The translations under genes and the position numbers were made by a program. A DNA stretch of 64,000 nucleotides from positions 4,997 through 68,996 of the forward strand of contig DATACK010000339.1 in assembly GCA_036259115.1 (NCBI GenBank), in the 5' to 3' direction. Within the stretch, counting starts at the first letter, position 1. Every line of letters starts with the position of its first letter. Below the pieces are notes generated by a model, which did not search any database, had not been told where the DNA came from, and was given only the letters and a program-made list of their open reading frames with translations. Of this stretch, positions 1 to 55,723 are shown one piece after another. Source of the DNA: Gammaproteobacteria bacterium. Lineage in GTDB: Bacteria; Pseudomonadota; Gammaproteobacteria; JACCYU01.

Positions 1-980
1 GAAAGAACAGGTTTCATGTGGTGGTGGCGCGTAGCACGATGCGACCAGGAAGTATGGCCAGCGTGGTAATCCCCACCTTGGAGGCAGCGTCTGGCAAGAA
101 AGCCGGCAAGGATTTTGGCGTATGTAACAACCCGGAGTTCTTGCGAGAGGGCACGGCGGTTTATGATTTCTATCATCCGCCCAAAACATTAATTGGCGAA
201 ATCGATCGAAACAGCGGTGATCTGCTGGCGCGCCTATACGAAAATCTGGACGCTCCGCTAATACGCACCGATGTGGAAACGGCGGAAATGGTCAAATACA
301 GCGATAACGTCTGGCATGCGCTAAAGGTCGGCTTCGCGAATGAGATCGGCAACATCTGTAAGGCTATAGGTATCGATGGACATAAGGTGATGGAGATCTT
401 TTGCCAGGATAATAAGCTTAATCTGTCATCCTATTATCTAAAGCCAGGCTTTGCCTTCGGGGGTTCTTGTTTGCCTAAGGACGTGCGCGCCCTGGTTTAC
501 AAAGCGCGCAGCCTGGATCTCGAGGCGCCTATCTTGAACGCCATTATTCCGAGCAACCAATGCCAGATCGAGAAGGGCTTAAAGATGATTCTCGAAAAGG
601 GAAATAAGAAGGTGGGATTTCTCGGCTTTAGCTTTAAAGCGGGCACCGACGATTTGCGCGAGAGCCCACTCGTGGAGCTGATCGAGCGCCTTATCGGCAA
701 GGGCTATGATGTGAAAATTTTCGACCGCAACGTCAACATTGCGCGCCTAGTTGGCGCCAACCGTGATTACATTCTTAACCATATTCCCCACATTTCGAAG
801 TTGATGGTCGAGAGCATCGAAGCGGTGCTCACCCATGCCCAGACGGTGGTTGTTGGCAATGCAGACAAGGATTTCGCGGCTGTCCCCGATCGACTACGCG
901 CCGATCAGGTGTTGGTCGACCTGGTTCGTGTTAGCCCGGGCAGAAGCGAGGCAGGAAAGTATGACGGCATCTGCTGGTAG
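1..980 (+). CDS. algD: GDP-mannose 6-dehydrogenase (AlgD-like), 5'-truncated by the window edge. The reading frame is that of the ORF starting at 18.
   Basis: It carries the UDP-glucose/GDP-mannose dehydrogenase motif GFAFGGSCLPKD. The C-terminal half aligns well with Pseudomonas AlgD from memory (KVGFLGFSFKAGTDDLRESP, terminal ...GICW). The in-frame ORF runs to a TAG at 978-980. Confidence 0.75.
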   Translation, partial: KNRFHVVVARSTMRPGSMASVVIPTLEAASGKKAGKDFGVCNNPEFLREGTAVYDFYHPPKTLIGEIDRNSGDLLARLYENLDAPLIRTDVETAEMVKYSDNVWHALKVGFANEIGNICKAIGIDGHKVMEIFCQDNKLNLSSYYLKPGFAFGGSCLPKDVRALVYKARSLDLEAPILNAIIPSNQCQIEKGLKMILEKGNKKVGFLGFSFKAGTDDLRESPLVELIERLIGKGYDVKIFDRNVNIARLVGANRDYILNHIPHISKLMVESIEAVLTHAQTVVVGNADKDFAAVPDRLRADQVLVDLVRVSPGRSEAGKYDGICW

Positions 981-2184
981 GCCACGGCGAGTCCTGATCA
1001 TTGTAGAGAACTTGCCAGTGCCTTTCGATCGAAGAGTGTGGCAGGAGGCCACGACCTTGGCAGACGCGGGTTATGTAGTATCGATCATCTGTCCAACCGG
1101 CAAAGGTTTTGAGGCTAGATATGAGGTCATCGATGGAGTCGAGATTTATCGACATAATCTGCCGGTGGAAGGGAGCGGTGCGCTGGGGTACGCAGTAGAA
1201 TATGCAGCGGCGTTATTCTGGGAATTCGTGCTGGCATGGCGGGTACTAGTACGCAAGGGATTTGACGTTATCCATGCCTGTAACCCACCCGATACTATCT
1301 TCCTGATTGGAGCCTTTTTTAAGCTATTTGGAAAACGGTTTCTGTTCGATCATCACGACATAAACCCTGAGCTTTATGAGGCTAAATTTGGGCGTCGGGA
1401 TATCTTCTACAAACTGATGGTGAGTTTGGAGCGTTGGACGTTTAAATTCGCCGACGTATCAATAGCGACCAATAAATCCTATGAACGTATTGCAATCGAG
1501 CGTGGCCGTATGTCTCCAGAAAAGGTGTTCGTGGTACGCAGTGGCCCTGATCTCACTCGGCTGAAAATCGGGCCACCTGACAATAGCCTTAAGCAAGGCC
1601 GGCAGTTTTTAGTCGGCTATGTTGGCGTGATGGGAAAACAAGAGGGCGTACGTTATCTTTTGCAGGCGGCTCATCATATTGTGCTTGGTCTGGGCCGTAA
1701 GGATGTCCAATTCGGTTTGGTGGGAGGCGGTACTGAACTTGAGGAGATGAAGGCTTATGCAAGCCAGTTGGGCCTGAGTGCCTATGTCACATTCACCGGA
1801 CGGATTCCGGATGCCGATATGTTAGCCATGCTGAATACAGCCGATGTGTGCGTCAATCCAGACGTGGCGAACGAAATGAATGATAAGTCCACGATGAATA
1901 AGATCATGGAGTACATGGCATTAGCGAAACCGATAGTGCAGTTCGATCTCACGGAGGGTCGCTTCTCTGCGCAAGGTGCTTCTTTATACGCGGCTAAAAA
2001 CGACCCGCTGGATTTCGCGCATAAGATTCTCTACTTGCTCGATAATCCAGCGCTACGGGCATCTATGGGTAACGCCGGGCGACAGAGAGTCGAAAACGAG
2101 CTGGCATGGAAATTCGAGATTCCAAAGCTACTCGCGGCCTATGAAACGCTGTTTAGTGGCAAAGCGGTGCCCAAGGTGGCGTAA
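961..2184 (+). CDS. Family 4 (GT4, 'group 1') glycosyltransferase.
   Basis: The translation runs from MTASAGRPRRVLIIVENLPVPFDRR. It has the GT-B fold pattern typical of GT4 and a C-terminal E-x7-E-like region. Its start overlaps the algD-like stop by about 20 nt, consistent with translational coupling. The ORF-track start at 835 would overlap the upstream gene by 146 nt, so I used the internal ATG at 961. Confidence 0.7.
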   Translation: MTASAGRPRRVLIIVENLPVPFDRRVWQEATTLADAGYVVSIICPTGKGFEARYEVIDGVEIYRHNLPVEGSGALGYAVEYAAALFWEFVLAWRVLVRKGFDVIHACNPPDTIFLIGAFFKLFGKRFLFDHHDINPELYEAKFGRRDIFYKLMVSLERWTFKFADVSIATNKSYERIAIERGRMSPEKVFVVRSGPDLTRLKIGPPDNSLKQGRQFLVGYVGVMGKQEGVRYLLQAAHHIVLGLGRKDVQFGLVGGGTELEEMKAYASQLGLSAYVTFTGRIPDADMLAMLNTADVCVNPDVANEMNDKSTMNKIMEYMALAKPIVQFDLTEGRFSAQGASLYAAKNDPLDFAHKILYLLDNPALRASMGNAGRQRVENELAWKFEIPKLLAAYETLFSGKAVPKVA

Positions 2185-2467
2185 CGGGACTTCCGCGGCA
2201 TTTATATACAAGCTTTGAGGGAATGCCGTTCAGTTAATATCCTTATTATGTTTGCTGCACCTGGAGGCTTTGATGGTATGGGCGCATCGCTCTTGAATCT
2301 GAACTCGCCAGCGAATACCAAGGATTATCACTAAAATCAAGCGACTGCCGCAGGTTTGCCTTGAGAGCACAGGCTGCCTTTCTTAATGCGCTGGGGGCCA
2401 GGGCGCGGTACGGTACCTTTGCGATGCGTGGTCTCATAGGCATTCCCCCGAGGTAGGGATCTGGGCA

Positions 2468-4099
2468 ATGAATTACCTGTTTGCGATTGTGACCGCTACG
2501 GCGGTGAGTCTCACGGTGATACCGGTCATGATGCGTCTGGCACCCTGGCTCGGCATGATGGATCAGCCCGATCCACGTAAGGTGCATGCCAGACCGGTGC
2601 CAAGGGTCGGCGGCTGGGGGATAGCTCTAGGTGCGCTCTTACCCATTTTTATTCTGCTGCCGCACACGCCCACGGTGCTGTCCTATGTTTTTGGCGTCGC
2701 CGTATTGCTGATCTTCGGTACCTTGGATGATCGGCAGGAGATGGGGCACTACACCAAGTTCGTAGGTCAATTCCTGGCTGTACTACCTGTGGTCACCTAC
2801 GGTGGCGTATATGTTGCGCACCTGCCACTGCTCGGAATAGAGCTCATTCCCACCGCCATTGGTATTCCCTTTAGCATCTTTGCGCTAATGGGAATGATTA
2901 ACGCGATCAATCACTCCGACGGCCTGGATGGACTTGCCGGTGGCGAGGCGTTCCTGAGTTTGGCTGCGTTCGCGTTTTTGGGCTACCTGGCAGGTAGCGA
3001 TTTGGTCTTGACTATCGCCTTGGCGGCGATGGGCGGCGGGCTTGGCTTCCTGCGCTACAATACCCATCCTGCAATCGTTTTCATGGGGGATGGCGGCAGC
3101 CAATTTCTGGGATTTACGCTCGGATTTTTGGCTATAGAGCTGACCCAGCAGGCCGATAGATCGCTGAGTCCCACCGTAGTCCTGCTGCTATTAGGATTGC
3201 CCATCGCCGATATTCTAATGGTCTTGGCAAAACGTATAAGCCGAGGGATGAACTGGTTTCGTGCTACAAGGAACCACCTACATCATCGGCTATTAGATAT
3301 CGGCTTTGTGCACCAAGAGTCGGTCGTCATCATCTACACCATACAGGCACTGCTGGTCTTTAGCGGCATTGCCCTTCGTTATCAAGATGATTGGTTGTTG
3401 TTCTTTGTATATGTAGCAGCCTGTTCTGTCGTTTTCGTGGCGCTGGGTTATGCCGAGCACACCGGTTGGATGGCGCACCGGAATAATGAAGAGAATCGCC
3501 TCAGTAACACCATCTCGTATCTGAGGCTCAAGCTTTTAGTGGCACTGCCGCGACGCTTCATCGAATTCGCGGTGCCAGCCTACTTACTTATAGCGAGCCT
3601 GTTGATCGCTGATGTTCCTCAAGACTTTGGATTTGCAGCGGCCAGTATATTTCTTTTACTGCTGATCGAGTCATCCTTAAGCGTTACGTCCCGGTCGATC
3701 ATATTACGTGCACTGGTTTATGTCGTTGCTACGTTCGTTATTTACCTCAATCATAACTTCCCGCCCCCGCATATCGCTTGGTTAGATTCGGTACAGTTGG
3801 GCTTTTTCATACTATTAGCACTGGCGATAGCGGCTGCTATAAAGTTTTCCCCCCGCCGCAGGGAATTTGAATTCAGAACGACTGCCATGGACTATCTGAT
3901 GATACTCATCGTATTGAGCAGTTTGATCCTGTCGCAGACGCAGCGTGTTAATGACCAAATCAGCTTATTCGTATTCGAAGTGATAATTCTTCTCTATGCC
4001 TGCGAGCTGCTGATTATAGAAAAGAGAGAGCGCTGGAATCCGCTCACATTGTCATCTCTCGCCACGACTGGGGTTTTGATGGCGCGTGGATTAACCTAA
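2468..4099 (+). CDS. Polyprenyl-phosphate N-acetylhexosamine-1-phosphate transferase (WecA/MraY family, glycosyltransferase family 4) with a roughly 200-aa hydrophobic C-terminal extension.
   Basis: The N-terminal ~340 aa carry MraY/WecA signatures (MNYLFAIVTATAVSLTVIPVMMRLA, DDRQEMG, NAINHSDGLDGLAGG, FMGDGGSQFLGF). At 543 aa total it is much longer than WecA or WbpL at roughly 340-370 aa. The extra part is multi-helix hydrophobic sequence. Confidence 0.8.
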   Translation: MNYLFAIVTATAVSLTVIPVMMRLAPWLGMMDQPDPRKVHARPVPRVGGWGIALGALLPIFILLPHTPTVLSYVFGVAVLLIFGTLDDRQEMGHYTKFVGQFLAVLPVVTYGGVYVAHLPLLGIELIPTAIGIPFSIFALMGMINAINHSDGLDGLAGGEAFLSLAAFAFLGYLAGSDLVLTIALAAMGGGLGFLRYNTHPAIVFMGDGGSQFLGFTLGFLAIELTQQADRSLSPTVVLLLLGLPIADILMVLAKRISRGMNWFRATRNHLHHRLLDIGFVHQESVVIIYTIQALLVFSGIALRYQDDWLLFFVYVAACSVVFVALGYAEHTGWMAHRNNEENRLSNTISYLRLKLLVALPRRFIEFAVPAYLLIASLLIADVPQDFGFAAASIFLLLLIESSLSVTSRSIILRALVYVVATFVIYLNHNFPPPHIAWLDSVQLGFFILLALAIAAAIKFSPRRREFEFRTTAMDYLMILIVLSSLILSQTQRVNDQISLFVFEVIILLYACELLIIEKRERWNPLTLSSLATTGVLMARGLT

Positions 4100-4140
4100 A
4101 ATGAAAAGCTGCGCGCTGTGGAAACTGGAAAATCCGAGGA

Positions 4141-4758
4141 ATGGCCGATAACAAGGTCAAAAAAAGCCCTAACACTGTTTGGCATCATGCCACTGTTACC
4201 CGAGCCAGGCGGCAACAGCAGAACGGCCATAAATCCGTAATACTCTGGTTTACGGGCTTATCTGGGGCGGGCAAATCGACGGTTGCTCACGCCGTTGAGG
4301 AGGCGCTGCACCGGCGGGGTTGCCATACGTTTGTATTCGACGGCGATAACGTCCGTCATGGCCTGTGTTCAGACCTGAGCTTCTCTGAGGAGGCACGCAA
4401 GGAAAATATCCGCCGAGTGGGAGAAATGGCCAAGCTCTTCGTCGAGGCCGGCATCATCTCACTTACGGCTTTTATCTCACCATATCGATCGGACCGCCAG
4501 AAAGTCCGGGAACTGGTAGGTCCCGGCGATTTCATCGAGATCTACTGCCGCTGCTCTTTGGAGATCTGCGAGCGCCGTGACGTAAAAGGACTTTATAAGC
4601 GCGCGCGTCACGGGGAGATCAAGGAGTTTACCGGCATATCGTCTCCTTATGAGGAACCTGTGAATCCAGAACTGGTAATCGACACAGGAGAAACCGCGCT
4701 GGAGACGTGTGTCGATCAGGTCGTAGAATATTTGGATCGCAACGGTTATCTAAATTAA
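4141..4758 (+). CDS. cysC: Adenylyl-sulfate (APS) kinase.
   Basis: P-loop GLSGAGKST in the characteristic APS-kinase context ([23 protein letters not shown]). The 205-aa length is typical. It stands alone, with no cysD or cysN in the window. Confidence 0.9.
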
Positions 4759-4964
4759 CTTGCTCGCAAGCGCGACGCCGGTGTTATTCTTGCTTCATCG
4801 CGGGGGATCCAGGCGTTAGATGCTATGCGGGACGCCGCTCAGGGGGTTACGCTACTTAGCACCCGCCGGTATAGTATAATCTATGTATTCTGCCTTACCT
4901 TCAGGAGCACAATCCCGTAGTGGCAGATTGACTTTCAACCGCCTTTTGAGTATTGAACAGAGTA

Positions 4965-5699
4965 ATGCCAAAGCCTCTTCTTGCAACCAAGCAAACGCAA
5001 GCAAGCAACGCAATGCCCAGCGAAAATGCCATCTCTAAGCGCCAGAACACAAAAGGCGTGGTGCGGGCTTGGCTTTATGATCGCATACTGACGGGATTGA
5101 CTTCGGGTTGGTATCGGGAAGTATTAACGCGCTTACCAGCAGGTGCCTCGTTGCTCGACGTGGGAATAGGCACAGGTAGCGCCATTGCTCACAACGCTAG
5201 ATTAATACGTGCTAAGAATATTCATATTTTGGGATTGGATATCGATCGGGACTACTTAAGCCGCTGTGAGAAGGTGCTGTCTCGAAATGACCTGTTGAAT
5301 CACGTAACGCCATGTCTTACGTCTGTCTACGATCACTGCGGCGGACCTTATGACGCCGTTTATTTCAGCGCCAGCTTTATGTTATTGCCGGATCCGGTAG
5401 GCGCGATCAAGCATGTCTCATCGCAATTGGCACCTGGTGGTTGGATATTTTTCACGCAGACGTTTCATCATGAGAAATCGCTATTGATCGAGAAGGTCAA
5501 ACCGATGCTGCATTACTTTACGACCATTCATTTTGGCCGTGTCACCTATGAAGATGACTTTCGCGAGATATTAAGTGAATCGGGCCTGGAACTACTAGAA
5601 TTCTTTACAATGGCGAGCACGCGGCATACTTCCTACCGGCTAGCAGTAGCGCGTCCTTATACGGGCGCCGAATCCAAGGCCATGGCAGCAGGCGCTTGA
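4965..5699 (+). CDS. Class I SAM-dependent methyltransferase.
   Basis: SAM-binding motif I LDVGIGTGS followed by a Rossmann-like pattern. The ORF-track start at 4953 is TTG; the first ATG is at 4965, so the start is uncertain. A perfect TATAAT sits upstream at about 4877-4882. Confidence 0.6.
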   Translation: MPKPLLATKQTQASNAMPSENAISKRQNTKGVVRAWLYDRILTGLTSGWYREVLTRLPAGASLLDVGIGTGSAIAHNARLIRAKNIHILGLDIDRDYLSRCEKVLSRNDLLNHVTPCLTSVYDHCGGPYDAVYFSASFMLLPDPVGAIKHVSSQLAPGGWIFFTQTFHHEKSLLIEKVKPMLHYFTTIHFGRVTYEDDFREILSESGLELLEFFTMASTRHTSYRLAVARPYTGAESKAMAAGA

Positions 5700-5823
5700 A
5701 TCGCTCGCCTGACGTGTCACTGCCTCCATTATTTCAACGTTCCATAGCTCATTTTTCTGCAAACCGCGGTGACGGTCTACTTTGCAAGTAGGTCAGTGGC
5801 TTGCTTGATTTAGGGCCGCTTGC

Positions 5824-6789
5824 TCACGCACGTCGGTCTGTCTTATTCTGGTCCAACCACGTTTCCAATCCCTGTGCATTTAGCTCAAGATCTGGCTTGA
5901 ATAACTCAACCGACTCGTCAGCACCGAGCGGACACCCAGTCTGCGCGAGTTCATGCAGCAGCATATCAGTCATATCGCGCATTATTCTTTCATGTCGGTC
6001 GTCGGCGCGCGCAGCATTGCGCGCGATCTCGATAAGCCCATCTATACGTCGGTGCAGGTCGCGCGCTAATTGCGCTACGTCCGTTACCATCCCGTAGTGC
6101 GTCAAGAACATGCGCTCGGGTGCATAGCTTAGCAGACGGCCAAGCGAAGCATGCCATGCGTCTGGGTCAAACTGTACCGGTGTGGTAGTCGGGAAGATAA
6201 ACGCACCCGCTGCGGTATCGAACTCTCGGTAGGAGAGTCCAAAGATGTCTCCGGTGAAGAAGCCTTTGTTGACCTCATCATATATGCTGTAGTGATGCCG
6301 AGCGTGGCCGGGGGTGTCCACGAACAGCAGCGGTCGGCCATTCAGATCTAGCACAAGGCCATCGTTGGCTACAGTTACGCGGGCTTCCGGAACCGCTACG
6401 AGTTCACCGAAGTTCTCGTGGAATGTAGTGTCGCCGTAAACGGCTTTCGCTCCGGTAATCAGCTTGCTTGGATTGATCATATGCGGTGCGCCGCGAGGAT
6501 GTACCACCAGCTTGGCGTTTGGCAATTGGCGCATAAGTGTGCCCGCGCCGCCGGCGTGGTCGAGATGCACGTGCGTGGGCATTACATAAGCCACACTTTC
6601 GGGCGTAATGCCCCTAATCCTCAGTAGCTTAAGCAACCGTGCCGCCGTATATGATGTGCCCGTATCAACGAAGGCTGCGCGATCGCCCTGTTCGATCAAA
6701 TAACACGCGGCGTGCTGCGGCCGAAGATAACCGGTGTCGATACAGGTGATGCCATTCGGCAACTCACGGTAGAATGATGAGGTGCGCAT
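5824..6789 (-). CDS. MBL-fold metallo-hydrolase.
   Basis: Metallo-beta-lactamase signature HVHLDHAGG (HxHxDH) with downstream His and Asp ligands, in a roughly 320-aa protein. Confidence 0.75.
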   Translation of the reverse strand: MRTSSFYRELPNGITCIDTGYLRPQHAACYLIEQGDRAAFVDTGTSYTAARLLKLLRIRGITPESVAYVMPTHVHLDHAGGAGTLMRQLPNAKLVVHPRGAPHMINPSKLITGAKAVYGDTTFHENFGELVAVPEARVTVANDGLVLDLNGRPLLFVDTPGHARHHYSIYDEVNKGFFTGDIFGLSYREFDTAAGAFIFPTTTPVQFDPDAWHASLGRLLSYAPERMFLTHYGMVTDVAQLARDLHRRIDGLIEIARNAARADDRHERIMRDMTDMLLHELAQTGCPLGADESVELFKPDLELNAQGLETWLDQNKTDRRA

Positions 6790-6893
6790 ACATATCCTCC
6801 CTGTACTTCAGCCGCTCAGCTGGTGCGTTAGATTCGCGCGAACGGGCATTAATCTGTAAGAAACGTCTGAATTGGATTAAGCAACTTATATGT

Positions 6894-7394
6894 TCAGTCC
6901 AGCAGGGGTTTCGAGGAGATGACAATGCCATCCCTGTCGGCGTACAGGTACTCTCCCGGCAAAAATGTTACATCTGCGAAACGCACTGTGACATCACGCT
7001 GACCGGTACCTTCTTTGATACTCTTGCGGGGATGACTTGCAAGCGCTCTGATTCCGATGCGGGTCTTGGCCAGTGCCTCGGAGTCCCGCACGCAACCATG
7101 TACGATGATACCAGCCCATCCGTTTCTCTCTGCCAATGCTGCTAGCTGATCGCCGATTAGGGCGCAACGCAGCGAACCGTAACCATCCACAACGAGAACC
7201 CGGCCGTCACCGGCCGTCTTCAGCGCGTCACGGACGAGGCTATTGTCCTCTAAGCACTGAACAGTGCTTATTTCCCCTTGAAAGGCTGTAAGTGCTCCAA
7301 AGTTCGCCAGTAGCGGTAGAGCCACTTGCAAGTTCGCGCTGTGCGCGTCGCAAAGGTCGGCTGTCTTGAATTCCGGTGGGACAATCGGCTTCAT
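6894..7394 (-). CDS. rraA: RraA-family protein (RNase E inhibitor RraA, or 4-hydroxy-4-methyl-2-oxoglutarate aldolase-like).
   Basis: 166 aa. Translation MKPIVPPEFKTADLCDAHS...GDGRVLVVDG matches the RraA/MenG family from memory. Confidence 0.75.
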   Translation of the reverse strand: MKPIVPPEFKTADLCDAHSANLQVALPLLANFGALTAFQGEISTVQCLEDNSLVRDALKTAGDGRVLVVDGYGSLRCALIGDQLAALAERNGWAGIIVHGCVRDSEALAKTRIGIRALASHPRKSIKEGTGQRDVTVRFADVTFLPGEYLYADRDGIVISSKPLLD

Positions 7395-7836
7395 TAGGCT
7401 GACTTGCAGTTAATTATTAGCTCGAACGTCATGCACGTCTGTCGGTCCTGGCGCTGATATCAGGCTTTTATATTTGGGGAGGCTTGCGCTGTCACTAACC
7501 CTTAGTGAGTCACGGGTGCGGTTAGGAAATGCCCATATTTCAAGGCAAAGAGAAAAGTCCACAAGGGCTGGAGTCATGAGGATTAAAGGAGGTGTGGGCT
7601 TTTTTGGCTGCTGTCCACCTTGATTGATGTTATTTATGCTGTTGCCTGGACATTGTCTAGCGAGGCCCCCAGCGCGGGCGCACTGATCTCAGCTAATGCC
7701 GCTACGGTATTTAACCGACAGTGCCATATTCTTCGTTGCAACACAGCATGTATAAAATGCCCTTATCAGCGGTGGTCTTATGTACGTAATGAACCACCAG
7801 GCGCTACTACACTGCCTACGACGAGGGGGTACACAA

Positions 7837-8586
7837 CTAGCTCATGTACATGCCCCCGTTTACGGGCAAGTTGATACCGGTTATATAGCCCGATTCGTCG
7901 GCGCTTAGAAATGCCACCGCATGGGCAATCTCCGATGGATGCGCCATGCGTCCTATGGGTATACCAGCAACAATAGTGTTACGAATGTCCTCAGGCACCG
8001 CCTGGGTCATGCGTGTTTCCACATAGCCGGGCGAAATCGTATTCACGGTCACTCCCTTGCTAGCGACCTCCTGGGCTAACGCCATCGAAAAACCATGTAC
8101 TCCGGCCTTCGCCGCGGAATAGTTGGTTTGCCCAAACATGCCCTTCTGCCCATTCACTGAAGATATGTTAATGATGCGGCCGAACCTCTGTTCTATCATG
8201 CCTTCTACAACATGACGCGTTACATTAAACACACTATCTAAGTTTGTTGTAAGCACTGCGTTCCATTGCTCCGGGTCCATCTTGCGCAACGTTTTGTCTC
8301 GCGTGATGCCTGCACAATTAACCAAAATATCAATGTGGCCAAACCTCTCCCGTACACTGCGCACCATAGCTCCGCTGGACTCAAATGACGTCACGTCCCC
8401 AGCCACAATCGCGATATCCAAGCCTTCGTCTCGACGCGCCTGCTGCCACTGTTTGGCAATCGCTTCTTCACTCGGCAGATAGCCAGCGACGACCTGGCGG
8501 CCGCTTGGCGCCAAACGTCTACAAATTTCGGTACCGATTCCGCCGATTCCACCCGTAACTAACGCGACCTTCTGTTCATTATTCAT
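7837..8586 (-). CDS. Acetoacetyl-CoA reductase-like short-chain dehydrogenase (PhaB paralog).
   Basis: SDR cofactor motif ALVTGGIGGIG and catalytic YSAAK. Global similarity to the PhaB encoded 1 kb downstream on the same strand. The internal ATG (MNNEQK) was chosen because it is preceded by AGGAG; the ORF-track start at 8679 is less likely. Confidence 0.75.
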   Translation of the reverse strand: MNNEQKVALVTGGIGGIGTEICRRLAPSGRQVVAGYLPSEEAIAKQWQQARRDEGLDIAIVAGDVTSFESSGAMVRSVRERFGHIDILVNCAGITRDKTLRKMDPEQWNAVLTTNLDSVFNVTRHVVEGMIEQRFGRIINISSVNGQKGMFGQTNYSAAKAGVHGFSMALAQEVASKGVTVNTISPGYVETRMTQAVPEDIRNTIVAGIPIGRMAHPSEIAHAVAFLSADESGYITGINLPVNGGMYMS

Positions 8587-8848
8587 ATTGATAATACTCC
8601 TAGCACCGATAATACTCCTGGCGCCGCATCCTGGGATTTGGATAGTCGGCTGTCCGCGTACGAGATATAAATGCTGCAAAGCAAAATATTATACGCATCA
8701 ATGTATGTCAAGTTGCGCATGGACTTAGTGCCAACCCTAATGGTGATTTAGAGAAGTGAGAAGCACCATCAATCAATAAATTGCGCGGCAGAAACAGTCG
8801 CGCCGCAGGGAGATGCGCTTGGGCCCAGTGCGGCCACCCAGGCGCCTG

Positions 8849-9352
8849 TTAGGAATTATCGCCCGGCTTTTTGTCGTTGTCGGACGGCAGCTTGATGCCA
8901 GCCACCTTTAAGAAATTCCTTTGCATGTCGCGCCAGATCTCCAGGTTGCGCTGGGTCAGATCCGCCATGAGCTCGAACGGCGTATTGCCGCTAATCATGT
9001 TGCGCATCTGCCTTTGTAGGCGCGTTTGCTGCTCCACGAATAGTTCCAGGGTCTTCTCCAGGTAAGTAGAGAATATGCCCTGCACCGAGCCGCCGTAGAA
9101 GCGGATCATCTTAGATAGAATGTCGGCAGTGAATAGCGGTTGTCCCTCCGACTCCTGTTCCAAAATGATCTGCAGTAGGGTAGTACGCGTGATATCATCG
9201 TTAGAGTTCGCGTCAATAACCCGGAACTCCAGGCCTTGTATGACTAGTTCACGAACATCGGCCATGGTGATATAACGGCTCACCTCTGTATCATATAGGC
9301 GCCTGTTTGGATATTTCTTGATGATGCGTATCTGTTGCGCTTTGTTGGTCAT
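8849..9352 (-). CDS. phaR: Polyhydroxyalkanoate synthesis repressor PhaR.
   Basis: The N-terminus IKKYPNRRLYDTEVSRYITMADVRELV is the conserved PhaR DNA-binding signature. The position inside the pha cluster supports the call. Confidence 0.85.
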   Translation of the reverse strand: MTNKAQQIRIIKKYPNRRLYDTEVSRYITMADVRELVIQGLEFRVIDANSNDDITRTTLLQIILEQESEGQPLFTADILSKMIRFYGGSVQGIFSTYLEKTLELFVEQQTRLQRQMRNMISGNTPFELMADLTQRNLEIWRDMQRNFLKVAGIKLPSDNDKKPGDNS

Positions 9353-9437
9353 ACCAGCCTTTTATGATGCCGCCGTAAGCCGGCGATGTGGCCGGGCATA
9401 CGGCGGCCATGCGAGGATTTCTGTAGTTTAGCCTAAT

Positions 9438-10187
9438 CTAGCACATGTGTTGGCCGCCGTTGATCGAGATATCGGCGCCGTTAATGAAGGCGGCATGTTC
9501 AGAAGCTAAGAAGGTGACCATGTGCGCTACTTCTTCTGGCTCACCGAGCCGGCCTGCCGGAATGGTGGCGATAATCTTATTGCGGACATCCTCCGGAACC
9601 GCCATGACCATGTCGGTAGCAATGTATCCAGGCGAAACCGTATTCACCGTCACACCCTTACGCGCAACTTCCTGCGCCACCGACATGGTAAATCCATGCA
9701 TACCGGCCTTAGAGGCAGCGTAGTTGCTCTGGCCCATTTGACCCTTCTGACCGTTGATCGACGAGATATTGATTACGCGACCGAAACCACGCGAGGTCAT
9801 GCCTTCGATCACGTGTCGCGTTAAGTTGAAGACACTATTCAGATTAATGTTGATGACCGCACTCCATTGCTCAAAGGTCATCTTGCGCAGGGTTACGTCC
9901 TTAGTAATACCGGCATTGTTAACGAGGATATCGATAGGCCCAATCTCGCTCTCAACTGTCTTGACAAGCTCCTCGCATGCCTTGAAGTCGCTGACGTCGC
10001 TTTTATAGGCAGGAATATCGTAGCCATCATCCTGGCACTGCTGAGCCCATTTGCGGGCCTTCTCCTCATTGCGATAATTGGTCGCGACGCGACAGCCTAC
10101 ATCGGCTAACTCCCGGCATATAGCATCGCCTATCCCACCGGTGCCGCCGGTGACCAACGCAACTTTGCCCGTTAGATCAATCTTCAT
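9438..10187 (-). CDS. phaB: Acetoacetyl-CoA reductase.
   Basis: SDR motifs VALVTGGTGGIG and YAASKAG, in a 249-aa protein immediately downstream of phaA. Start taken at MKIDLTGK. Confidence 0.85.
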   Translation of the reverse strand: MKIDLTGKVALVTGGTGGIGDAICRELADVGCRVATNYRNEEKARKWAQQCQDDGYDIPAYKSDVSDFKACEELVKTVESEIGPIDILVNNAGITKDVTLRKMTFEQWSAVININLNSVFNLTRHVIEGMTSRGFGRVINISSINGQKGQMGQSNYAASKAGMHGFTMSVAQEVARKGVTVNTVSPGYIATDMVMAVPEDVRNKIIATIPAGRLGEPEEVAHMVTFLASEHAAFINGADISINGGQHMC

Positions 10188-10192
10188 TGCCC

Positions 10193-11377
10193 TCACCTCT
10201 CGACAGCAATAGCGACACCTTGACCCCCGCCGATGCACAATGTGGCTAAACCCTTTTGCACATCGCGCCGCATCATCTCGTAGAGCAGACTCACGAGCAC
10301 GCGCGCGCCGGATGCGCCGATCGGATGGCCAAGCGCGATAGCACCGCCATTGACGTTCACCTTCTCGGGATCCCAGCCCATATCACGATTAACCGCAATG
10401 GCCTGCGCAGCAAAAGCTTCATTGGCCTCGATCAAATCCAAGTCCTCGACCCGCCATCCAGCCTTTTCCAGGCAACGAGTGCTGGCGGGGATAGGCCCAG
10501 TGCCCATAATCGCCGGATCCACACCCGCGTTTGCATAGGCGGCGATGCGCGCCATGGGCTTCAAACCTAACTCCTCGGCGCGACTGCGGCTCATTACGAT
10601 TACGGCCGCGGCACCATCGTTAATACCTGATGCATTGCCCGCGGTAACCGTACCGGCATCCTTGGCGAAGGCGGGGCGTAGCTTGCTCAATCCTTCGGCG
10701 GTCACCCCTTTTCGTGGGAACTCATCCGTATCGAATACGACTGGATCGCCTTTGCGCTGAGGCACCTCGACGGGAATAATCTGATCCTTGAAGTAGCCTG
10801 CCTCTTGGGCGGCCTCGGTGCGCTGTTGCGACGTGGCCGCGAATTCGTCTTGTTCCTCGCGGCTGATTCCGTATTTCTTGGCGATATTTTCCGCTGTCGT
10901 GCCCATGTGATACTTATTAAATACGTCCCATAGGCCGTCATTGATTATGGTATCCACTAATTGCCAAGTTCCCATGCGTTGACCGGTACGAGAATTGGGC
11001 AAGGCGTGTGGAGCCTGGCTCATACTTTCCTGACCACCAGCGATGACAACCGCCGCATCACCGCAACGGATTGCTTGCGCGGCCAAGTGCACTGCCTTTA
11101 ACCCGCTGCCGCACACCTTATTAATAGTCATAGCAGGCACTGAATGCGGTAGCCCAGCCTGTATACTGGCTTGTCTTGCCGGATTCATGCCGACGCCAGC
11201 TGTCAGCACCTGTCCCAGGATTACCTCGCTAATTTGATCGGGCTGCAAACCTGCGCGGGATAGCAGCCCGGCGATAACCTTGGCACCCAGCGCGCTTGCT
11301 GGCAGTGAGGACAAGGTGCCGCCGAATGAGCCAATAGCGGTACGGCCGGCAGCCACAATGATAATGTCTTCTTTCAT
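10193..11377 (-). CDS. phaA: Acetyl-CoA acetyltransferase (beta-ketothiolase).
   Basis: Thiolase signatures: active-site Cys in [10 protein letters not shown], the C-terminal [12 protein letters not shown] motif, 394 aa. Confidence 0.9.
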
Positions 11378-11644
11378 TCTCCGCTCCTAAACTGAGATTT
11401 ACGGTTGGCTAACTCAGTTGTAATTGCTCTACGTGGGGTTACTATGCGAAATGAGGGTGTCACATGCATGCAACGCTATCAAAGCTCAGCGCGTGATACT
11501 AGATATGGATGCAACTTAAATGCCGTTACGCTTGGGTTTAGCGCAATGTTGCGACGCAAAACAAGCTTATGTTACGGTTAGTAGGGTAATATACGTGGAT
11601 TGCGGCCATGCACTTGCTCCAAATTCTCGCTGGAGGCAGTCGTC

Positions 11645-12814
11645 ATGAATGATAATCCGTTTACCGCCTGGGCCAATCAGTTGCTTGAATATCAACGTCA
11701 ATATCAAGACGTATGGCAGACATTCGCTTCCAGCGCAAATGGAGCGCGTCTCGGCGTGGAGGGCCTCAATAACGCGAATCCGTGGATAGCGGCACTGGAT
11801 CAATGGTGGAAAGCGGTATCTCCTAGTGCGGCGCCGTCGGTGCAGAATTTCTACTCCAAGCTGGTAGAACAGGGAAAGGCATACTTTCAAGTAACGGATG
11901 GTTTAAGCAGGGCGCTCCAGCAGGCGACCGCTGCGGGTGAGTCTGCCATGCGATGGCAGGAGGCCGTAAATAATGTGCTGTCCAGCCTAAGAGACATGTT
12001 CGCGGGGCAAAGGACGGATGTTCAAGGGGCTGCACGCCAGGCCATGGGCTTTTGGGAGCTGCCCCTTAATACATGGCGGAGAGCGGTATCGTCGTCAATA
12101 TTGCCCGGCGACTTTTTGCAAGATGTTGGCGCATCAAGTATCGGTCAAGTGCGCGATCAGCTCCATGGTCGCGTCGATCAACTGTTATCCACACCCGCCA
12201 TTGGCTACATGCGCGAAGATCAGGAAAAGGTACAAACCCTGATTAGGCTAAATCTCGATTATCAACAGGCGTTGCAAGATTACGTAGCTACCTATGCTGA
12301 AATAGGCGTCAAGTGTGTCGAGGTGCTGCAGCAGAATCTTCAGCAACGGGTGGCGGAACGCAAGCCTATTGAATCACTGCGCGAGCTCTATGGTCTATGG
12401 GTTGATAGCTGTGAACAGGCCTATGGTGATTACGTCAGCACTGATAAGTACGTCGAGATCTATGGACGTCTGGTTAATAGTCTGATGGCATTAAAGCGGC
12501 ACGGCCATATGATGCTCGATGAAGCATTGAACGCCGTTGACATACCAACCCGTAGGGAGATCCGTACTCTCGTGCATCGTATGCACGAAGTACGTTGGGA
12601 AGGTAAGGCGCTTAGGGCTGAGATTGAGATTTTGAAGGAACAACATCAGGCGTCGCTTAAGGAAAAGCAAGCTCGCCCTCCAGCTCCTGCCGTAAATAGA
12701 CCCAAACGCGCGGCCGCGAAGACGAAAGCGATGGCCTCAAAGTCTGCTGCTAAATCTAAGACCGAACAAAACTCCCGCACCAAGCGCGAACAATCAACTA
12801 CCAAGCGGTTCTAA
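11645..12814 (+). CDS. phaE: Class III PHA synthase subunit PhaE, with a Lys/Ala-rich C-terminal tail.
   Basis: Roughly 390-aa protein immediately upstream of and co-oriented with a ~355-aa class III PhaC, the canonical phaEC arrangement. It has coiled-coil-like central regions and a basic tail KRAAAKTKAMASKSAAKSK. The start at MNDNPF at 11645 was chosen over the ORF-track start at 11600. Confidence 0.65.
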   Translation: MNDNPFTAWANQLLEYQRQYQDVWQTFASSANGARLGVEGLNNANPWIAALDQWWKAVSPSAAPSVQNFYSKLVEQGKAYFQVTDGLSRALQQATAAGESAMRWQEAVNNVLSSLRDMFAGQRTDVQGAARQAMGFWELPLNTWRRAVSSSILPGDFLQDVGASSIGQVRDQLHGRVDQLLSTPAIGYMREDQEKVQTLIRLNLDYQQALQDYVATYAEIGVKCVEVLQQNLQQRVAERKPIESLRELYGLWVDSCEQAYGDYVSTDKYVEIYGRLVNSLMALKRHGHMMLDEALNAVDIPTRREIRTLVHRMHEVRWEGKALRAEIEILKEQHQASLKEKQARPPAPAVNRPKRAAAKTKAMASKSAAKSKTEQNSRTKREQSTTKRF

Positions 12815-12838
12815 TCGCAGACTTCGAGGAGGTAATCC

Positions 12839-13903
12839 ATGATACCGGTTCAGATCCGTCCTGATAGGGCCGCGAAGGAAATGCTCGAGTTTAATCAGAA
12901 GCTCGGCCTAGGCCTCAAGAACCTGATTAACATAGGCGAAATCAGCATAGGCGCGACGCCTACGGAGGTTATTTATCGCGAGGACAAACTGACCTTGCAC
13001 CGCTACCAGTCACCCTTCGGAGAACCGCACAATCCGGTGCCGGTTGTAGTCGTTTACGCGTTAGTGAATCGCCCCTATATGGCTGATCTGCAAGAAGATC
13101 GCTCGCTCGTGCGGGGCATGCTTAAGGCTGGTCAGGACGTGTATCTGATCGACTGGGGATACCCGGATCGCGCCGACCAGTATCTGACCATGGATGATTA
13201 TATCAACGGATATCTAGACCGCAGTGTAGACACTATTCGGCGGAGGCATGGGATTGACAAGGTCAACATGTTGGGCATCTGTCAAGGCGGCACCTTCAGC
13301 CTGTGTTACAGCGCCATACATGCACATAAAGTGAAGAATCTGATCACGATGGTGACACCAGTCGATTTTCAAACCCCAGGCGATTTGCTTAGTCGTTGGG
13401 TACAACAGATCGATGTCGATCTGCTGGTGGACACTATGGGCAACGTATCCGGCGATCTCATGAACTGGATGTTTCTGTCACTTAAACCCTTCCGCCTGAT
13501 GGGCCAAAAATATCTGGACATGGTCGATTTGCTTGATGATGAGGAGCAGGCCCGCAATTTCCTGCGCATGGAAAAATGGATATTTGACAGCCCGGATCAG
13601 GTCGGCGAGACGTTCAAGCAATTCGTTAAAGGCTTCTATCAAGAAAACCGCCTGATCAAGGGCGAGGTGCAGCTCGGCGCGCATCGTGTAGATCTGAGAA
13701 ACATCACGATGCCGGTCTTGAATATCTATGCCAGAGAGGATCATCTGGTGCCGCCGCCTGCAAGCACCGCCCTCAAGCGCTATGTAAGCACGCGTGATTA
13801 TAGTGAATTAGACTTCCCAGGCGGCCACATCGGCATCTATGTTAGCGGAAAGTCACAGAAAACCGTGCCCCCGGCAATCGGTGAGTGGCTCGATGCTAGA
13901 TAA
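12839..13903 (+). CDS. phaC: Class III poly(3-hydroxyalkanoate) synthase catalytic subunit PhaC.
   Basis: 354 aa with an alpha/beta-hydrolase fold and a lipase-box-like GICQGG (G-x-C-x-G) carrying the catalytic Cys. The size and the phaE partner are typical of class III synthases. Confidence 0.85.
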   Translation: MIPVQIRPDRAAKEMLEFNQKLGLGLKNLINIGEISIGATPTEVIYREDKLTLHRYQSPFGEPHNPVPVVVVYALVNRPYMADLQEDRSLVRGMLKAGQDVYLIDWGYPDRADQYLTMDDYINGYLDRSVDTIRRRHGIDKVNMLGICQGGTFSLCYSAIHAHKVKNLITMVTPVDFQTPGDLLSRWVQQIDVDLLVDTMGNVSGDLMNWMFLSLKPFRLMGQKYLDMVDLLDDEEQARNFLRMEKWIFDSPDQVGETFKQFVKGFYQENRLIKGEVQLGAHRVDLRNITMPVLNIYAREDHLVPPPASTALKRYVSTRDYSELDFPGGHIGIYVSGKSQKTVPPAIGEWLDAR

Positions 13904-14028
13904 GCAAGAAATATCCGCTGCGCTGATTCTAGGCAACTGATTAGACTTTTATTGCAGTGCCACAAATATTAGCAAATTCTCAGTGCCTTAAGCGCCCCAT
14001 CAATGATCTTACAGGAGAAGCAGCTACC

Positions 14029-15624
14029 ATGGCTACTCAAGCTTATGAGCAGTCGTCACCGGCCCTCGAAGTGACCGGGCAACTGACTTCGCAATTTAGG
14101 GAGGTTCTAACCCCTGCGGCGCTAGATTTTGTGGCGGCGCTGGCATGGCGTTTCACGGCGCGGCGCGACGAATTACTGGCAATGAGGCATGAACGTCAGA
14201 CGCGTTTGGATGCTGGTGTGATGCCGGACTTTCTGCCCGAAACAGCAGAGATCCGCAGGAGCAGCTGGCGGATAGCGCCGGCGCCAGCGGATTTACAAGA
14301 CCGCCGGGTGGAGATTACCGGCCCTGTCGATCGCAAGATGATCATCAATGCGCTCAATTCTGGCGCTAAGGTTTTCATGGCTGATTTCGAAGACGCTCAT
14401 GCGCCGACTTGGGAGGGCACTATTCAGGGCCAGATTAATCTCCGTGATGCGGTTAATGGCACTATTGAGTTTACAAATCCTCAGGGCAAGCAGTATCGTC
14501 TAAATGATTCTGTCGCAACACTCGTTGTGCGCCCGCGTGGTTGGCATCTGCCCGAGAAACACGTCTTGCTGGACGGTTTGCCCATCCCGGGTGCATTCTT
14601 GGACTTCGGACTGTATCTCTTCCACAACGCTCATACATTATTAGATAGAGGTAGCGGGCCATACTTTTACTTACCCAAACTCGAAAGTCATCTCGAGGCT
14701 CGACTTTGGAATGATGTTTTTAACTATGCCGAGCAGGTGTTGAGTATTCCACATGGAAGCATCAAGGCCACGGTGCTTATAGAGACCATCTTGGCAGCAT
14801 TCGAGATGGATGAAATCCTCTACGAGCTGCGCGATCACGTTGTCGGACTCAACTGCGGGCGTTGGGATTATATTTTCAGCTTTATCAAATGCTTTCATAA
14901 GCATCCTCAGTTCATTTTGGCCGATCGTTCGCAGCTCACGATGACGGCGCACTTCATGCGTTCGTATTCGCTGCTGTTAATCAAGACCTGCCACCGGCGC
15001 GGCGTGCATGCAATGGGTGGGATGGCGGCGCAGATCCCCATTAAAGGGGATCCAGAAGCTAATGAAATAGCGTTAGCTAAGGTACGCGCGGATAAGGAGC
15101 GTGAGGCACGCGACGGCCACGATGGAACCTGGGTAGCGCATCCCGGCCTGGTGTCCGTCGCCGAGGAGATATTCAATCGATATATGCCCGGACCTAATCA
15201 GATTGAACGGCAGCGCGATGATGTCAAAGTAACGGCACAGGATTTGCTTTCTATACCTGAAGGCGGGATTACTGAAGCCGGATTGGCTGGTAATGTTAGT
15301 GCGGCGTTACGTTACATCGCGGCCTGGAAGGGAGGGCAGGGTTCAGTGCCCATTCATAACCTTATGGAAGATGTGGCGACTGCGGAGATCGCGCGAGCCC
15401 AGCTGTGGCAATGGGTTCGGTATCCCAAAGGTGTTATGAACGATGGCCGTAAGGTAACGATTGAACTGTTCGACCAAGCGCTAGAGCATGAGTTGCAGCA
15501 AATCCGCTATGAACTCGGAGATCCGCAGTTCGAGAAAAGCCATGCGCAAGCCGCAGCCGCTTTGTTACGCAAGCTGGTAATTGACGACCGATTTGCAGAA
15601 TTTTTAACGCTGGAAGCGGACTGA
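14029..15624 (+). CDS. aceB: Malate synthase A.
   Basis: Roughly 530 aa with malate synthase A family motifs. It lies directly upstream of isocitrate lyase. Start taken at MATQAYEQ; the ORF-track start at 13957 is possible. Confidence 0.85.
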
Positions 15625-23697: not shown

Positions 23698-23788
23698 GGA
23701 GAGGTGTCCGAGCGGTCGAAGGAGCACGCCTGGAAAGTGTGTATACGTTAATAGCGTATCGAGGGTTCGAATCCCTCCCTCTCCGCCA
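23698..23788 (+). tRNA. tRNA-Ser, anticodon GGA.
   Basis: 91 nt: GGAGAGGTGTCCGAGCGGTCGAAGGAGCACGCCTGGAAAGTGTG...GGTTCGAATCCCTCCCTCTCCGCCA. It shows a type II long variable arm, the T-loop GGTTCGAATCC, the anticodon loop CU-GGA-AA, and an encoded CCA. Confidence 0.9.
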
Positions 23789-24047: not shown

Positions 24048-24161
<114 letters not shown>

Positions 24162-45639: not shown

Positions 45640-45752
45640 GGACAGCAGTTGTTTGCTGCTGTTGTGGCCTGCGCGGCGCATATCGCAGGGTGTAAGCACA
45701 GGTTGTTTCCCTTAGAATGATTTCTTCGCCAGCCAAGTCGGCCCAGATATTA

Positions 45753-55411: not shown

Positions 55412-55723
55412 GGCTGCGAATTGAGTATGAGTAAGACGCATGGCAGCATTAACTATGATGTCGCCGCATTTTGCCGTTGCTTATTTGTCGCCGAAAGCCA
55501 AGTATGATATAAAAGCGCGCCCATCGGGTGCAAATGCCACATGCTATCATTGAGCTTGGCTCAAGCGGATTATGTCGGCGAATGGCACTCCGATACCTAA
55601 TCCGCACATGCGCCATCACGGGCGGCTGGGTGCTCCGCCTCTGAATTAAGTCTTTTGATTCAAGTCGGGGTCGCCGCTCGGGGCGCATGGAGGCCTAAAC
55701 CCAACCTTTAAAAGGACTTGTTC

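Follow-up and report, generated by a model that had tools for sequence, protein, structure and literature searches.

Which polysaccharide would be made by a locus in which an alginate-type precursor gene lies beside genes for a lipid-carrier priming enzyme and for the formation of activated sulfate? The question arises at one end of a 64,000-nt stretch of DNA (hereafter, the window) from an uncultured gammaproteobacterium. There, genes for a GDP-mannose 6-dehydrogenase (GMD), a GT4 glycosyltransferase, a membrane-bound priming transferase (the primer) and an adenosine 5′-phosphosulfate (APS) kinase, CysC, occupy positions 1–4758. The co-directional plus-strand genes continue to 5699, and all five were confirmed by an open reading frame (ORF) listing and Pfam/NCBIfam searches at about the coordinates assigned to them in an earlier note on this DNA, with domain E-values far beyond chance:

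3–980, plus strand: GDP-mannose 6-dehydrogenase, C-terminal 325 of 437 aa; three UDPG_MGDP_dh Pfam domains, match to PDB entry 1mfz
961–2184, plus strand: GT4 (GT-B, retaining-type) glycosyltransferase; Glyco_trans_1_4, Glycos_transf_1 and Glyco_transf_4
2185–2467: intergenic gap of 283 nt, the site of xrtD in more distant relatives
2468–4099, plus strand: MraY/WecA-family phosphotransferase, 543 aa; PF00953, 1.2e-35
4141–4758, plus strand: cysC, stand-alone APS kinase; PF01583, 2e-68, and NF003013, 317 bits
4965–5699, plus strand: class I S-adenosylmethionine-dependent methyltransferase; Methyltransf_23/12/25/31/11

We consider it rather likely that window 1–4758 is the downstream half of a surface-polysaccharide locus of ~15 kb. 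With somewhat better than even confidence, its product would be a heteroglycan made of repeat units and primed on a lipid carrier, with mannuronic acid (ManA) among its sugars and with O-sulfation in the cytoplasm via the locus's own CysC. A continuation of the locus upstream had been suspected from the window alone, and L001, L015 and L174 (loci are designated by L numbers) do show further locus genes beyond the window edge. The upstream evidence comes from L001, which is collinear with window 1–14758 at 99.2% nucleotide identity (window position 1 is L001 position 3707), and from relatives, not from the window's own contig. Gene neighbourhoods were compared in 80 species-level genomes anchored on the primer (44–75% identical) and in 80 metagenome loci anchored on the GT4 (68–75% identical; more than 589 relatives exist). 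Domain scans of the window covered, with Pfam, seven ORFs in 1–7.4 kb and every non-nested ORF of at least 150 aa in 7.8–64 kb. The window CysC (HEX2239276.1) is encoded identically by several metagenome contigs, and exact-protein look-ups of the window GT4, primer and methyltransferase gave no matches. Operon structure was inferred from gene spacing alone, since a promoter and terminator scan of 1–7600 was uninformative (counts at or below shuffled expectation, none inside intergenic gaps).

The dehydrogenase defines the sugar chemistry. The window fragment spans residues ~112–437, with the N-terminal Rossmann part upstream of the window edge, and matches PF03721 (partially, at the edge), PF00984 and PF03720; the full-length 437-aa protein of L001 (3373–4686) carries all three UDPG_MGDP_dh domains. 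In the PDB, the window fragment matches the Pseudomonas aeruginosa entry 1mfz from end to end (E=4.1e-123, 414 bits), compared to 1.7e-46 and 162 bits for the best UDP-glucose dehydrogenase (3vtf). Among NCBIfam models, the generic TIGR03026 alone is above cutoff, and the UDP-specific equivalogs are all far below theirs. The catalytic-cysteine motif GGSCLPKD is present, FAFGGSCLPKDVRAL aligns identically with AlgD, and the C-terminus ends in DGICW, as in P. aeruginosa AlgD. As the enzyme groups with AlgD and not with UDP-sugar dehydrogenases, the AlgD-type identity proposed in the earlier note stands, and we regard the sequence evidence for AlgD-type, rather than Ugd/WecC, as strong.

In L001, a 677-aa heparinase II/III-like (Hep-like) gene precedes GMD, its stop overlapping the GMD start. 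The encoded protein matches PF16889 and PF07940, has heparinase III as its best PDB match (7.6e-16), and lacks an N-terminal signal peptide on sequence inspection. On the other side, the GT4 gene starts at ATG 961, with AGGAAAG just before it, and shares 20 nt with GMD (stop 978–980); this overlap, noticed earlier in the window, is also kept in L015, L089 and L174. GMD lies directly 5′ of the GT4 orthologue in 61 of the 80 GT4-anchored loci, and 15 of the 19 others have no upstream sequence, so that the pair is found in 61 of ~65 informative metagenome loci. Of the 80 loci, 34 also have Hep-like genes with the GMD-GT4 pair, 18 have AsnB-like amidotransferases and 11 have methyltransferases of a separate family, at times between Hep and GMD. 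This conserved core, Hep-(methyltransferase)-GMD-GT4, supports the GT4 as a user of GDP-ManA, and we infer that it is a GDP-ManA-dependent mannuronosyltransferase. Its best PDB matches are the GDP-mannose-dependent PimB′ and PimA, at E~1e-6 only. Its best NCBIfam match is the stp3 PEP-CTERM/XrtA glycosyltransferase model and that of the upstream GT4 of L015 is stp2, both sub-threshold. Across distant genomes, GMD and GT4 are 66–76% (mostly 70–76%) identical, with only 45–48% for the adjacent primer.

The priming enzyme belongs to the PNPT family (PF00953). The AlphaFold2 (AF2) model of the protein has a pLDDT of 83.7, and its residues ~1–335 match MraY/DPAGT1 (TMt 0.70–0.79; E down to 4e-9 for MraY). 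DD and NxxNxxDGxDGL are Mg-binding motifs of PNPT enzymes, and HxHH is their His-rich motif. The primer has an invariant DD, NAINHSDGLDGL, and an NHxHH motif in which H270 and H272 are invariant and H273 nearly so; across 60 family members, D87, D88, N145, N148, D151, G152, D154, G155 (NxxNxxDGxDGL), H270 and H272 are all invariant. Family, fold and motifs bear out the earlier description as a priming polyprenyl-phosphate sugar-1-phosphate transferase, with a hexosamine as its presumed sugar; the protein falls short of TIGR02380, the equivalog model of the GlcNAc-1-P-specific WecA of E. coli (157.8 bits, cutoff 326).

The C-terminal portion of the primer (about nt 3449–4096) is a membrane domain of ~210 aa and ~7 helices with no Pfam match and no structural match to its AF2 model. 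Among 1.84 billion sequences, it was found only at the C-terminus of this family or its fragments (260 representatives). F469, D475, L477, Y510 and E513 are invariant and R362, P370, D386 and T472 nearly invariant, which suggests that the domain has a function. The 543-aa architecture, including this domain, is kept in Granulosicoccaceae, Thiogranum, Thiohalobacter, Sulfuricaulis, Arenicellales, Sulfuricella and others.

CysC is assigned with high scores (PF01583, 229.6 bits; NF003013, cutoff 163; TIGR00455, 281 bits, cutoff 138.7) and has the P-loop GLSGAGKST. Its gene begins 41 nt after the primer gene, and this spacing is 38–55 nt across the lineage (L001, L015, L089, L174). The adjacency recurs in L007, L008, L009 and L046, and a more distant cysC precedes the primer in L026 and L028. 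In Pfam scans, neither the 64 kb nor the 3.7 kb upstream yielded a cysD, cysN, cysH, cysQ, sat or apr gene. The picture of a lone cysC outside any cysDN context, with the PNPT gene and a methyltransferase as its neighbors, is therefore upheld, as is the linkage of cysC to glycan genes in related genomes; cysDN are not its neighbors in the visible context.

If CysC supplies 3′-phosphoadenosine 5′-phosphosulfate (PAPS) for the glycan, a sulfotransferase is expected, and the guess of sulfation made from the window gained its candidates upstream. Divergent from the Hep-like gene and 5′ of it, L001 carries a minus-strand gene (1–915, cut by the contig end, 305 aa seen) for a protein we designate ST_a. 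A full-length version (P0125, 332 aa) is 99% identical to the L001 copy, and the orthologue in L015 reads:

L015:2955–3956, minus strand: sulfotransferase-fold gene, ST_a orthologue

Against PF13469 (Sulfotransfer_3; cutoff 27), ST_a scores 25.1 bits (L015) or 19.9 bits (L001 fragment), over its N-terminal 35 residues only, and about a third of the family members listed carry a precomputed PF13469 match. A phmmer search of the PDB gave no match, and the hhalign alignment to one canonical sulfotransferase spanned no more than 27 residues at the N-terminus. As these direct sequence tests are weak, a fold search and an iterative hidden Markov model (HMM) were needed. The AF2 model (pLDDT 87.7) has a sulfotransferase fold, with comparison scores of 14.5 for the olefin-synthase sulfotransferase domain (4gox), 12.7 for the tyrosylprotein sulfotransferases (TPST) TPST2 and TPST1, 12.0 for tick TPST, 9.9 for Stf1, 9.6 for Stf9 and 9.4 for an Alicyclobacillus sulfotransferase (3rnl). 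ST_a is also picked up by a local HMM for which three Pfam-positive sulfotransferases served as seeds. In a joint alignment, the motifs are collinear with those of canonical sulfotransferases: SSYSGST lies against the xPRSGTT of the 5′-phosphosulfate-binding (5′-PSB) loop, with G and T invariant, and IWKTP (K116 invariant) aligns with the VRDxRD strand of the 3′-phosphate-binding (3′-PB) motif. The lack of a Walker-A lysine argues against a kinase. By its model, ST_a is a sulfotransferase-fold protein of a divergent family, for which activity is not guaranteed. The family has ~256 relatives, mostly annotated as hypothetical, and a nearly invariant HH-x4-CGC-x4-C insert (H44, H45, C50, C52, C57) with the look of a metal-binding knuckle.

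Relatives extend the locus further. In L015, the P0005 contig/L089 and L174/L175, the gene order is Hep, GMD, GT4, primer, cysC and methyltransferase, followed by a metallo-β-lactamase (MBL)-fold hydrolase gene, RraA and pha genes. GMD, GT4, primer and CysC are 75–86% identical to those of the window lineage, and the Hep-like protein, methyltransferase and ST_a 59–72% (ST_a lowest). Beyond ST_a, on the same strand, these relatives encode a multi-transmembrane protein of 462–465 aa with a large hydrophilic loop, then a GT4. The 462-aa protein of L015 has no Pfam or NCBIfam match and no likeness to the Wzy_C protein of L123, and we call it Wzy-like by position and topology only. Two genes past ST_a, L174/L175 encode a canonical sulfotransferase, ST2 (PF00685+PF13469; 5′-PSB motif TPRSGST), and next to it another methyltransferase, MT2, whose gene is cut by the contig end; L015:1–231 is an ST2 orthologue fragment covering the first 77 residues. 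Four independent assemblies end in or just past this sulfotransferase side (in ST_a, ST2 or MT2), the contig ends being L001 position 1, L015 position 1 and the last position of L174/L175, which suggests a repeat, strain-variable or low-coverage region.

Farther afield, sulfotransferase-like ORFs occur in 13 primer-gene loci (the 80 anchored genomes plus L001 and L087), with L087, L068 and 9 further primer-family loci taken as independent replicates. Sulfotransferase genes are present in three GT4-anchored loci (L106, L123, L134), each between a GT4 and the Hep-like gene; the order in L123 and L106 is GT4, sulfotransferase, Hep, GMD, GT4. The unrelated contig L134 has, in order, an APS kinase, a DASS/Na-sulfate-symporter-type permease, a PHPT primer, a TSP3 protein, GMD, GT4, Hep, a sulfotransferase (111 bits) and a GT4, and is an independent replicate of the cysC, sulfotransferase and mannuronate theme of the window. 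The L134 permease (1848–3575), directly after the lone cysC, is of CitMHS/DASS type, contains two TrkA-C domains and resembles a Na-sulfate symporter at its C-terminus; it is a candidate for a dedicated sulfate importer serving glycan sulfation.

From the 99.2%-identical contig and relatives, with 75–86% protein identity for most operon genes, the locus layout would be (MT2)-ST2-GT4-multi-transmembrane Wzy-like protein-ST_a on one strand and, divergently on the other, Hep-GMD-GT4-WecA-like primer-cysC. Assembly of the glycan may then proceed as follows. The WecA-like enzyme would place an N-acetylhexosamine-1-phosphate on undecaprenyl phosphate at the cytoplasmic face; family and motifs are clear, and the sugar is presumed. 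GMD, for which the family assignment is strong, would oxidize GDP-mannose to GDP-mannuronic acid, and the coupled GT4, judging from the conserved pairing, would transfer ManA onto the lipid-linked acceptor. Since GT4 is a retaining family, an α linkage would be expected, unlike the β-ManA of alginate. The second GT4 would lengthen the unit. CysC would make PAPS from APS, and, as their co-location suggests, one or two cytoplasmic sulfotransferases would O-sulfate the lipid-linked unit. The lyase-fold Hep-like protein, which has no signal peptide, might act at uronate C5, either by epimerization or by lyase-type trimming. Finally, the multi-transmembrane protein, by its topology, may polymerize or ligate the unit. 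The polymer probably carries sulfate, and the earlier idea of sulfation has gained good support.

More distant relatives tie the same primer to protein-sorting loci. An exosortase/EpsI fusion gene lies directly 5′ of the primer in ~28 of the 80 primer-anchored gammaproteobacterial genomes. Four examples, each with PF09721+PF11984, are:

L084:8372–9952: xrtD exosortase/EpsI fusion
L068:8367–9935: xrtD exosortase/EpsI fusion
L021:7927–9513: xrtD exosortase/EpsI fusion
L123:9523–11091: xrtD exosortase/EpsI fusion

It lies at ~8400–9960 in ~25 other genome loci (primer start at 10001). The exosortases of L084 and L123, the two scanned on NCBIfam, score 560–563 bits with TIGR04152 (XrtD, the VPLPA-CTERM-specific type; cutoff 400). 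In L021, L068, L084 and L123, Hep-GMD-GT4 is followed directly by xrtD; L123 ends soon after it, and in the other three xrtD sits exactly between GT4 and primer, where the window has its 283-nt gap. An AsnB-like amidotransferase is encoded as well in L021 and L068, and methyltransferases in L068, L084 and probably L021. No exosortase match was found in the window, L001, L015 or L174, and a regular-expression search for the C-terminal motif found no PEP-CTERM/VPLPA-CTERM proteins in the window or in close relatives' loci; the same scan found VPLPA-type tails solely in the distant loci L011, L052, L066 and L077. Our literature searches found no paper joining exosortase, PEP-CTERM, sulfotransferase and exopolysaccharide, none joining GDP-mannose dehydrogenase and exosortase, nothing relevant on XrtD/VPLPA-CTERM, and no linkage of XrtD to a PNPT enzyme with an extra C-terminal membrane domain.

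A number of observations weigh against a sulfated ManA heteroglycan. Every functional step is deduced from sequence, and the donor of the GT4 from gene pairing alone, its PDB likeness to GDP-mannose enzymes being weak. The sulfotransferase genes lie outside the window: its own population shows only 305 aa of ST_a, and ST2 is seen solely in relatives whose locus genes are ~59–86% identical (CysC highest). In ST_a, which lies just under the Pfam threshold, Tyr12 replaces the canonical catalytic Arg/Lys of the 5′-PSB loop, and the protein could be inactive or do something else. With a sulfotransferase in just 3 of the 80 GT4-anchored loci, sulfation appears to be accessory to the ManA module and not general. 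Inspection upstream, as the earlier note had advised, yielded the sulfotransferase genes and the Wzy-like candidate but no flippase or exporter, the assemblies of this lineage all stopping at the far end of it. In L088 (= L008), the primer-cysC pair sits amid housekeeping genes, between FecR/TPR genes and prfC/valS, with no glycosyltransferase or sulfotransferase within 10 kb, so primer-cysC adjacency can persist without a visible sulfation context. In L089 (5402–5854), cysC is reduced to a 53-aa APS-kinase fragment after a 79-aa reverse ORF. A 68-kb JGI contig with P0005 encodes the same primer protein as L089, then an intact-looking cysC start; the two may differ through decay of cysC, through polymorphism or because one was misassembled.

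These last contexts lend some weight to the view that cysC is an ordinary sulfur-assimilation gene, kept beside the primer by inherited synteny, and that the glycan is not sulfated through it. L007, L009 and L046 also have the adjacency without a nearby sulfotransferase by HMM, one relative has kept its glycan genes while its cysC has apparently decayed, and the window has a PALP/CysK-like gene at 45717–46643. We nevertheless think this view unlikely, given a cysC without cysDN or cysH anywhere in 64 kb, its close spacing to the primer in a locus with up to two sulfotransferases (ST_a in its own population, ST2 in relatives), and the independent union of cysC, sulfate-type permease, sulfotransferase and GMD-GT4-Hep in L134. 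Since sulfotransferases need PAPS, a PAPS source is functionally required by these neighbors. PAPS and the sulfotransferase-fold proteins might instead modify something other than a polysaccharide, either tyrosines of secreted or sorted proteins, in the manner of TPST, or a lipid, and the tie of the primer family to XrtD loci in ~28 of 80 genomes points in that direction. Likeness of a sulfotransferase fold does not predict the acceptor, however, and the genes of ST_a and ST2 lie in among two for GT4 enzymes and that of the Wzy-like membrane protein, the sulfotransferases of L123, L106 and L134 lie between GT4 and Hep-like genes, and neither an exosortase (by tblastn) nor a PEP/VPLPA-CTERM protein (by regular expression) is found in the window or close relatives' loci; a non-polysaccharide target is thus quite improbable.

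Alginate, or an alginate-like mannuronate homopolymer with the Hep-like protein in the role of AlgL, is the remaining alternative, to which the AlgD-type GMD and a match of the Hep-like protein to the Alginate_lyase Pfam model (E=0.0037, below threshold) might point. It was rejected on gene content and is highly improbable. Neither Alg8 (GT2) nor Alg44/PilZ, nor any of the periplasmic scaffold, modification and export genes AlgK/E/X/G/L/I/J/F, was found in the scanned ORFs of the 64-kb window or in the genes of L001, L015 and L174, so the absence of an alg8/alg44-type GT2 reported for the window extends to the larger locus. PNPT priming on a lipid carrier and retaining GT4 enzymes fit a repeat-unit heteroglycan, and the Hep-like protein lacks the signal peptide expected of a periplasmic AlgL. 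With the alginate operon (algD operon, Pseudomonas/Azotobacter) the locus has in common the precursor enzyme, the GICW C-terminus and a lyase-type gene in the operon. It differs in lacking the alginate polymerization and export genes, in being primed on a lipid carrier, in using retaining GT4 rather than inverting GT2 enzymes, and in the lyase family, AlgL being a periplasmic PL5 enzyme and the Hep-like protein a heparinase II/III member. We conclude that the glycan probably contains mannuronic acid and is not alginate.

A sulfated ManA heteroglycan can be compared with several known systems. Animals and algae commonly make sulfated polysaccharides, but for bacteria they are rarely documented and few gene clusters have been linked with them; it is likewise rare to find mannuronic acid in glycans other than alginate. 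The presence of a PAPS gene and a sulfotransferase in a polysaccharide cluster is described as the hallmark of the synthesis of sulfated polysaccharides (PMC11641403; also PMC11766843, PMC8205485), as in Vibrio sp. KMM 8419 (PMC11641403), Cobetia marina KMM 1449 (PMC11766843) and the synechan xss cluster of Synechocystis (PMC8205485). By the description in PMC11641403, both components are found here, cysC just 3′ of the primer and the sulfotransferase genes outside the window (ST_a; ST2). All three clusters are like the window locus in having their own PAPS-forming gene and sulfotransferase(s), with sulfation presumed to be cytoplasmic, and those of Vibrio and Cobetia are likewise gammaproteobacterial; the window locus is known from its genes alone. 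The Vibrio and Cobetia clusters have cysD+cysN+cysC (or cysNC, cysQ and a permease), ABC-transporter/Kps export and rhamnose, glucose and mannose as sugars. In contrast, cysC stands alone in the window locus, the primer is a PNPT enzyme, the GMD is AlgD-type and coupled to a GT4, and lyase-fold and Wzy-like proteins are encoded as well; of the two sulfotransferases, one is from a family barely recognized by Pfam. What is new compared to known clusters with a PAPS gene and a sulfotransferase is the sugar chemistry, the primer type, the lone cysC, the lyase-fold protein and the divergent sulfotransferase family.

The XrtD/PEP-CTERM exopolysaccharide loci (TIGR04152, stp1–3 models) share the primer family, 3′ of xrtD, and the Hep-GMD-GT4 module. 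The window lineage differs in having cysC and sulfotransferases instead of an exosortase or PEP/VPLPA-CTERM proteins nearby, and no curated model of the XrtA system is matched at threshold in it. More distant parallels exist in the N-glycan pathway of Halobacterium salinarum, with two sulfotransferases (PMC11980604) and the uronate C5-epimerase Agl32 (PMC13308652), and in animal dermatan and heparan sulfate. There, too, a uronic-acid lipid-linked oligosaccharide is sulfated and, in those systems, C5-epimerized; they belong to other domains of life and use glucuronic/iduronic acid rather than ManA.

These parallels bear on the Hep-like protein. Both lyases and C5-epimerases abstract the proton at C5, and the heparinase II/III family has α-toroid and β-sandwich elements. 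As the dermatan sulfate epimerase DS-epi1 (DS-epimerase 1) has the same α-toroid plus β-sandwich architecture (PMC13308652), an epimerase role for the Hep-like protein is conceivable, and by this analogy it is purely hypothetical. A bolder proposal, which we hold to be decidedly unlikely, is that the Hep-GMD-GT4 module makes a glycosaminoglycan (GAG)-like acidic polymer, in which the cytoplasmic Hep-fold protein, rather than being a lyase, would epimerize lipid-linked D-ManA at C5 to L-guluronic acid, and which the window lineage would O-sulfate by the ST_a family, as sulfotransferases not recognized before, with PAPS from the lone CysC.

The methyltransferase that follows cysC had been considered, speculatively, for methylation of the glycan, a role that its family context does not support. 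Its likely start is ATG 4965 or 5013, as set by gene callers, and not TTG 4953, ~206 nt from cysC; the gap holds a perfect TATAAT (4875–4880) with no well-spaced −35 element and no call by the promoter scan. Homologues are 58–66% identical across phyla, including Pseudonocardia. On actinobacterial contigs, the orthologues (60–66%) lie in the order DUF3039, methyltransferase, α/β-hydrolase, (PhaC), BrkB, with no glycan genes, and the methyltransferases that recur in ManA-module loci (MT68, MT84 and MT2; L068, L084, L174) are of a different family. As a glycan-tailoring enzyme it was therefore rejected, and given these non-glycan contexts we treat it as an incidental neighbor, probably unrelated to the glycan system. 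In Pseudonocardia L173 the family adjoins PhaC and an α/β-hydrolase, which hints that the window gene may belong with the polyhydroxyalkanoate (PHA) block rather than with the glycan genes.

After the methyltransferase, the other strand carries the MBL-fold hydrolase and RraA, followed by the PHA block (phaB-like, phaR, phaB, phaA, phaE, phaC) and housekeeping genes. In region 7837–15624, phaR is flanked by two acetoacetyl-CoA-reductase-like short-chain dehydrogenase genes; phaA and class III phaE-phaC come next, and then the glyoxylate-shunt genes for malate synthase and isocitrate lyase. A 588-aa protein (26973–28739, minus strand) joins an isocitrate/isopropylmalate dehydrogenase domain to a C-terminal CBS pair, and a conventional Iso_dh gene is also present (17176–18543). 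G+C is 51.5% in the first 5.7 kb compared to 55.0% in the rest of the window; for the glycan locus (window 1–5699; L001:1–3706) it is 51.1–51.5%, a low value that is often seen in polysaccharide loci and would fit horizontal acquisition. Three ordinary housekeeping RNAs were also annotated:

23698–23788: tRNA-Ser(GGA)
24056–24152: bacterial small signal recognition particle RNA, upstream of dnaX
55585–55699: t44 element, upstream of rpsB

As a whole, the sulfated ManA heteroglycan is well supported as a hypothesis at the level of gene annotation and does not amount to the demonstration of a new mechanism. The locus joins an AlgD-type GMD, a coupled GT4, a lyase-fold protein, a primer with an extra membrane domain, a private PAPS supply and one or two sulfotransferases, and its Hep-GMD-GT4 core module is abundant in soil and sediment metagenomes without a described product. 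If the GAG-like proposal were true, it would provide a genetic basis for the sulfated, uronate-rich “GAG-like” and “alginate-like” polymers of environmental biofilms. If the prediction of a sulfated ManA heteroglycan is true, these genes would be concrete candidates for the synthesis of bacterial sulfated uronate polymers and would help to interpret the “alginate-like” and “GAG-like” matrix polymers of such biofilms.

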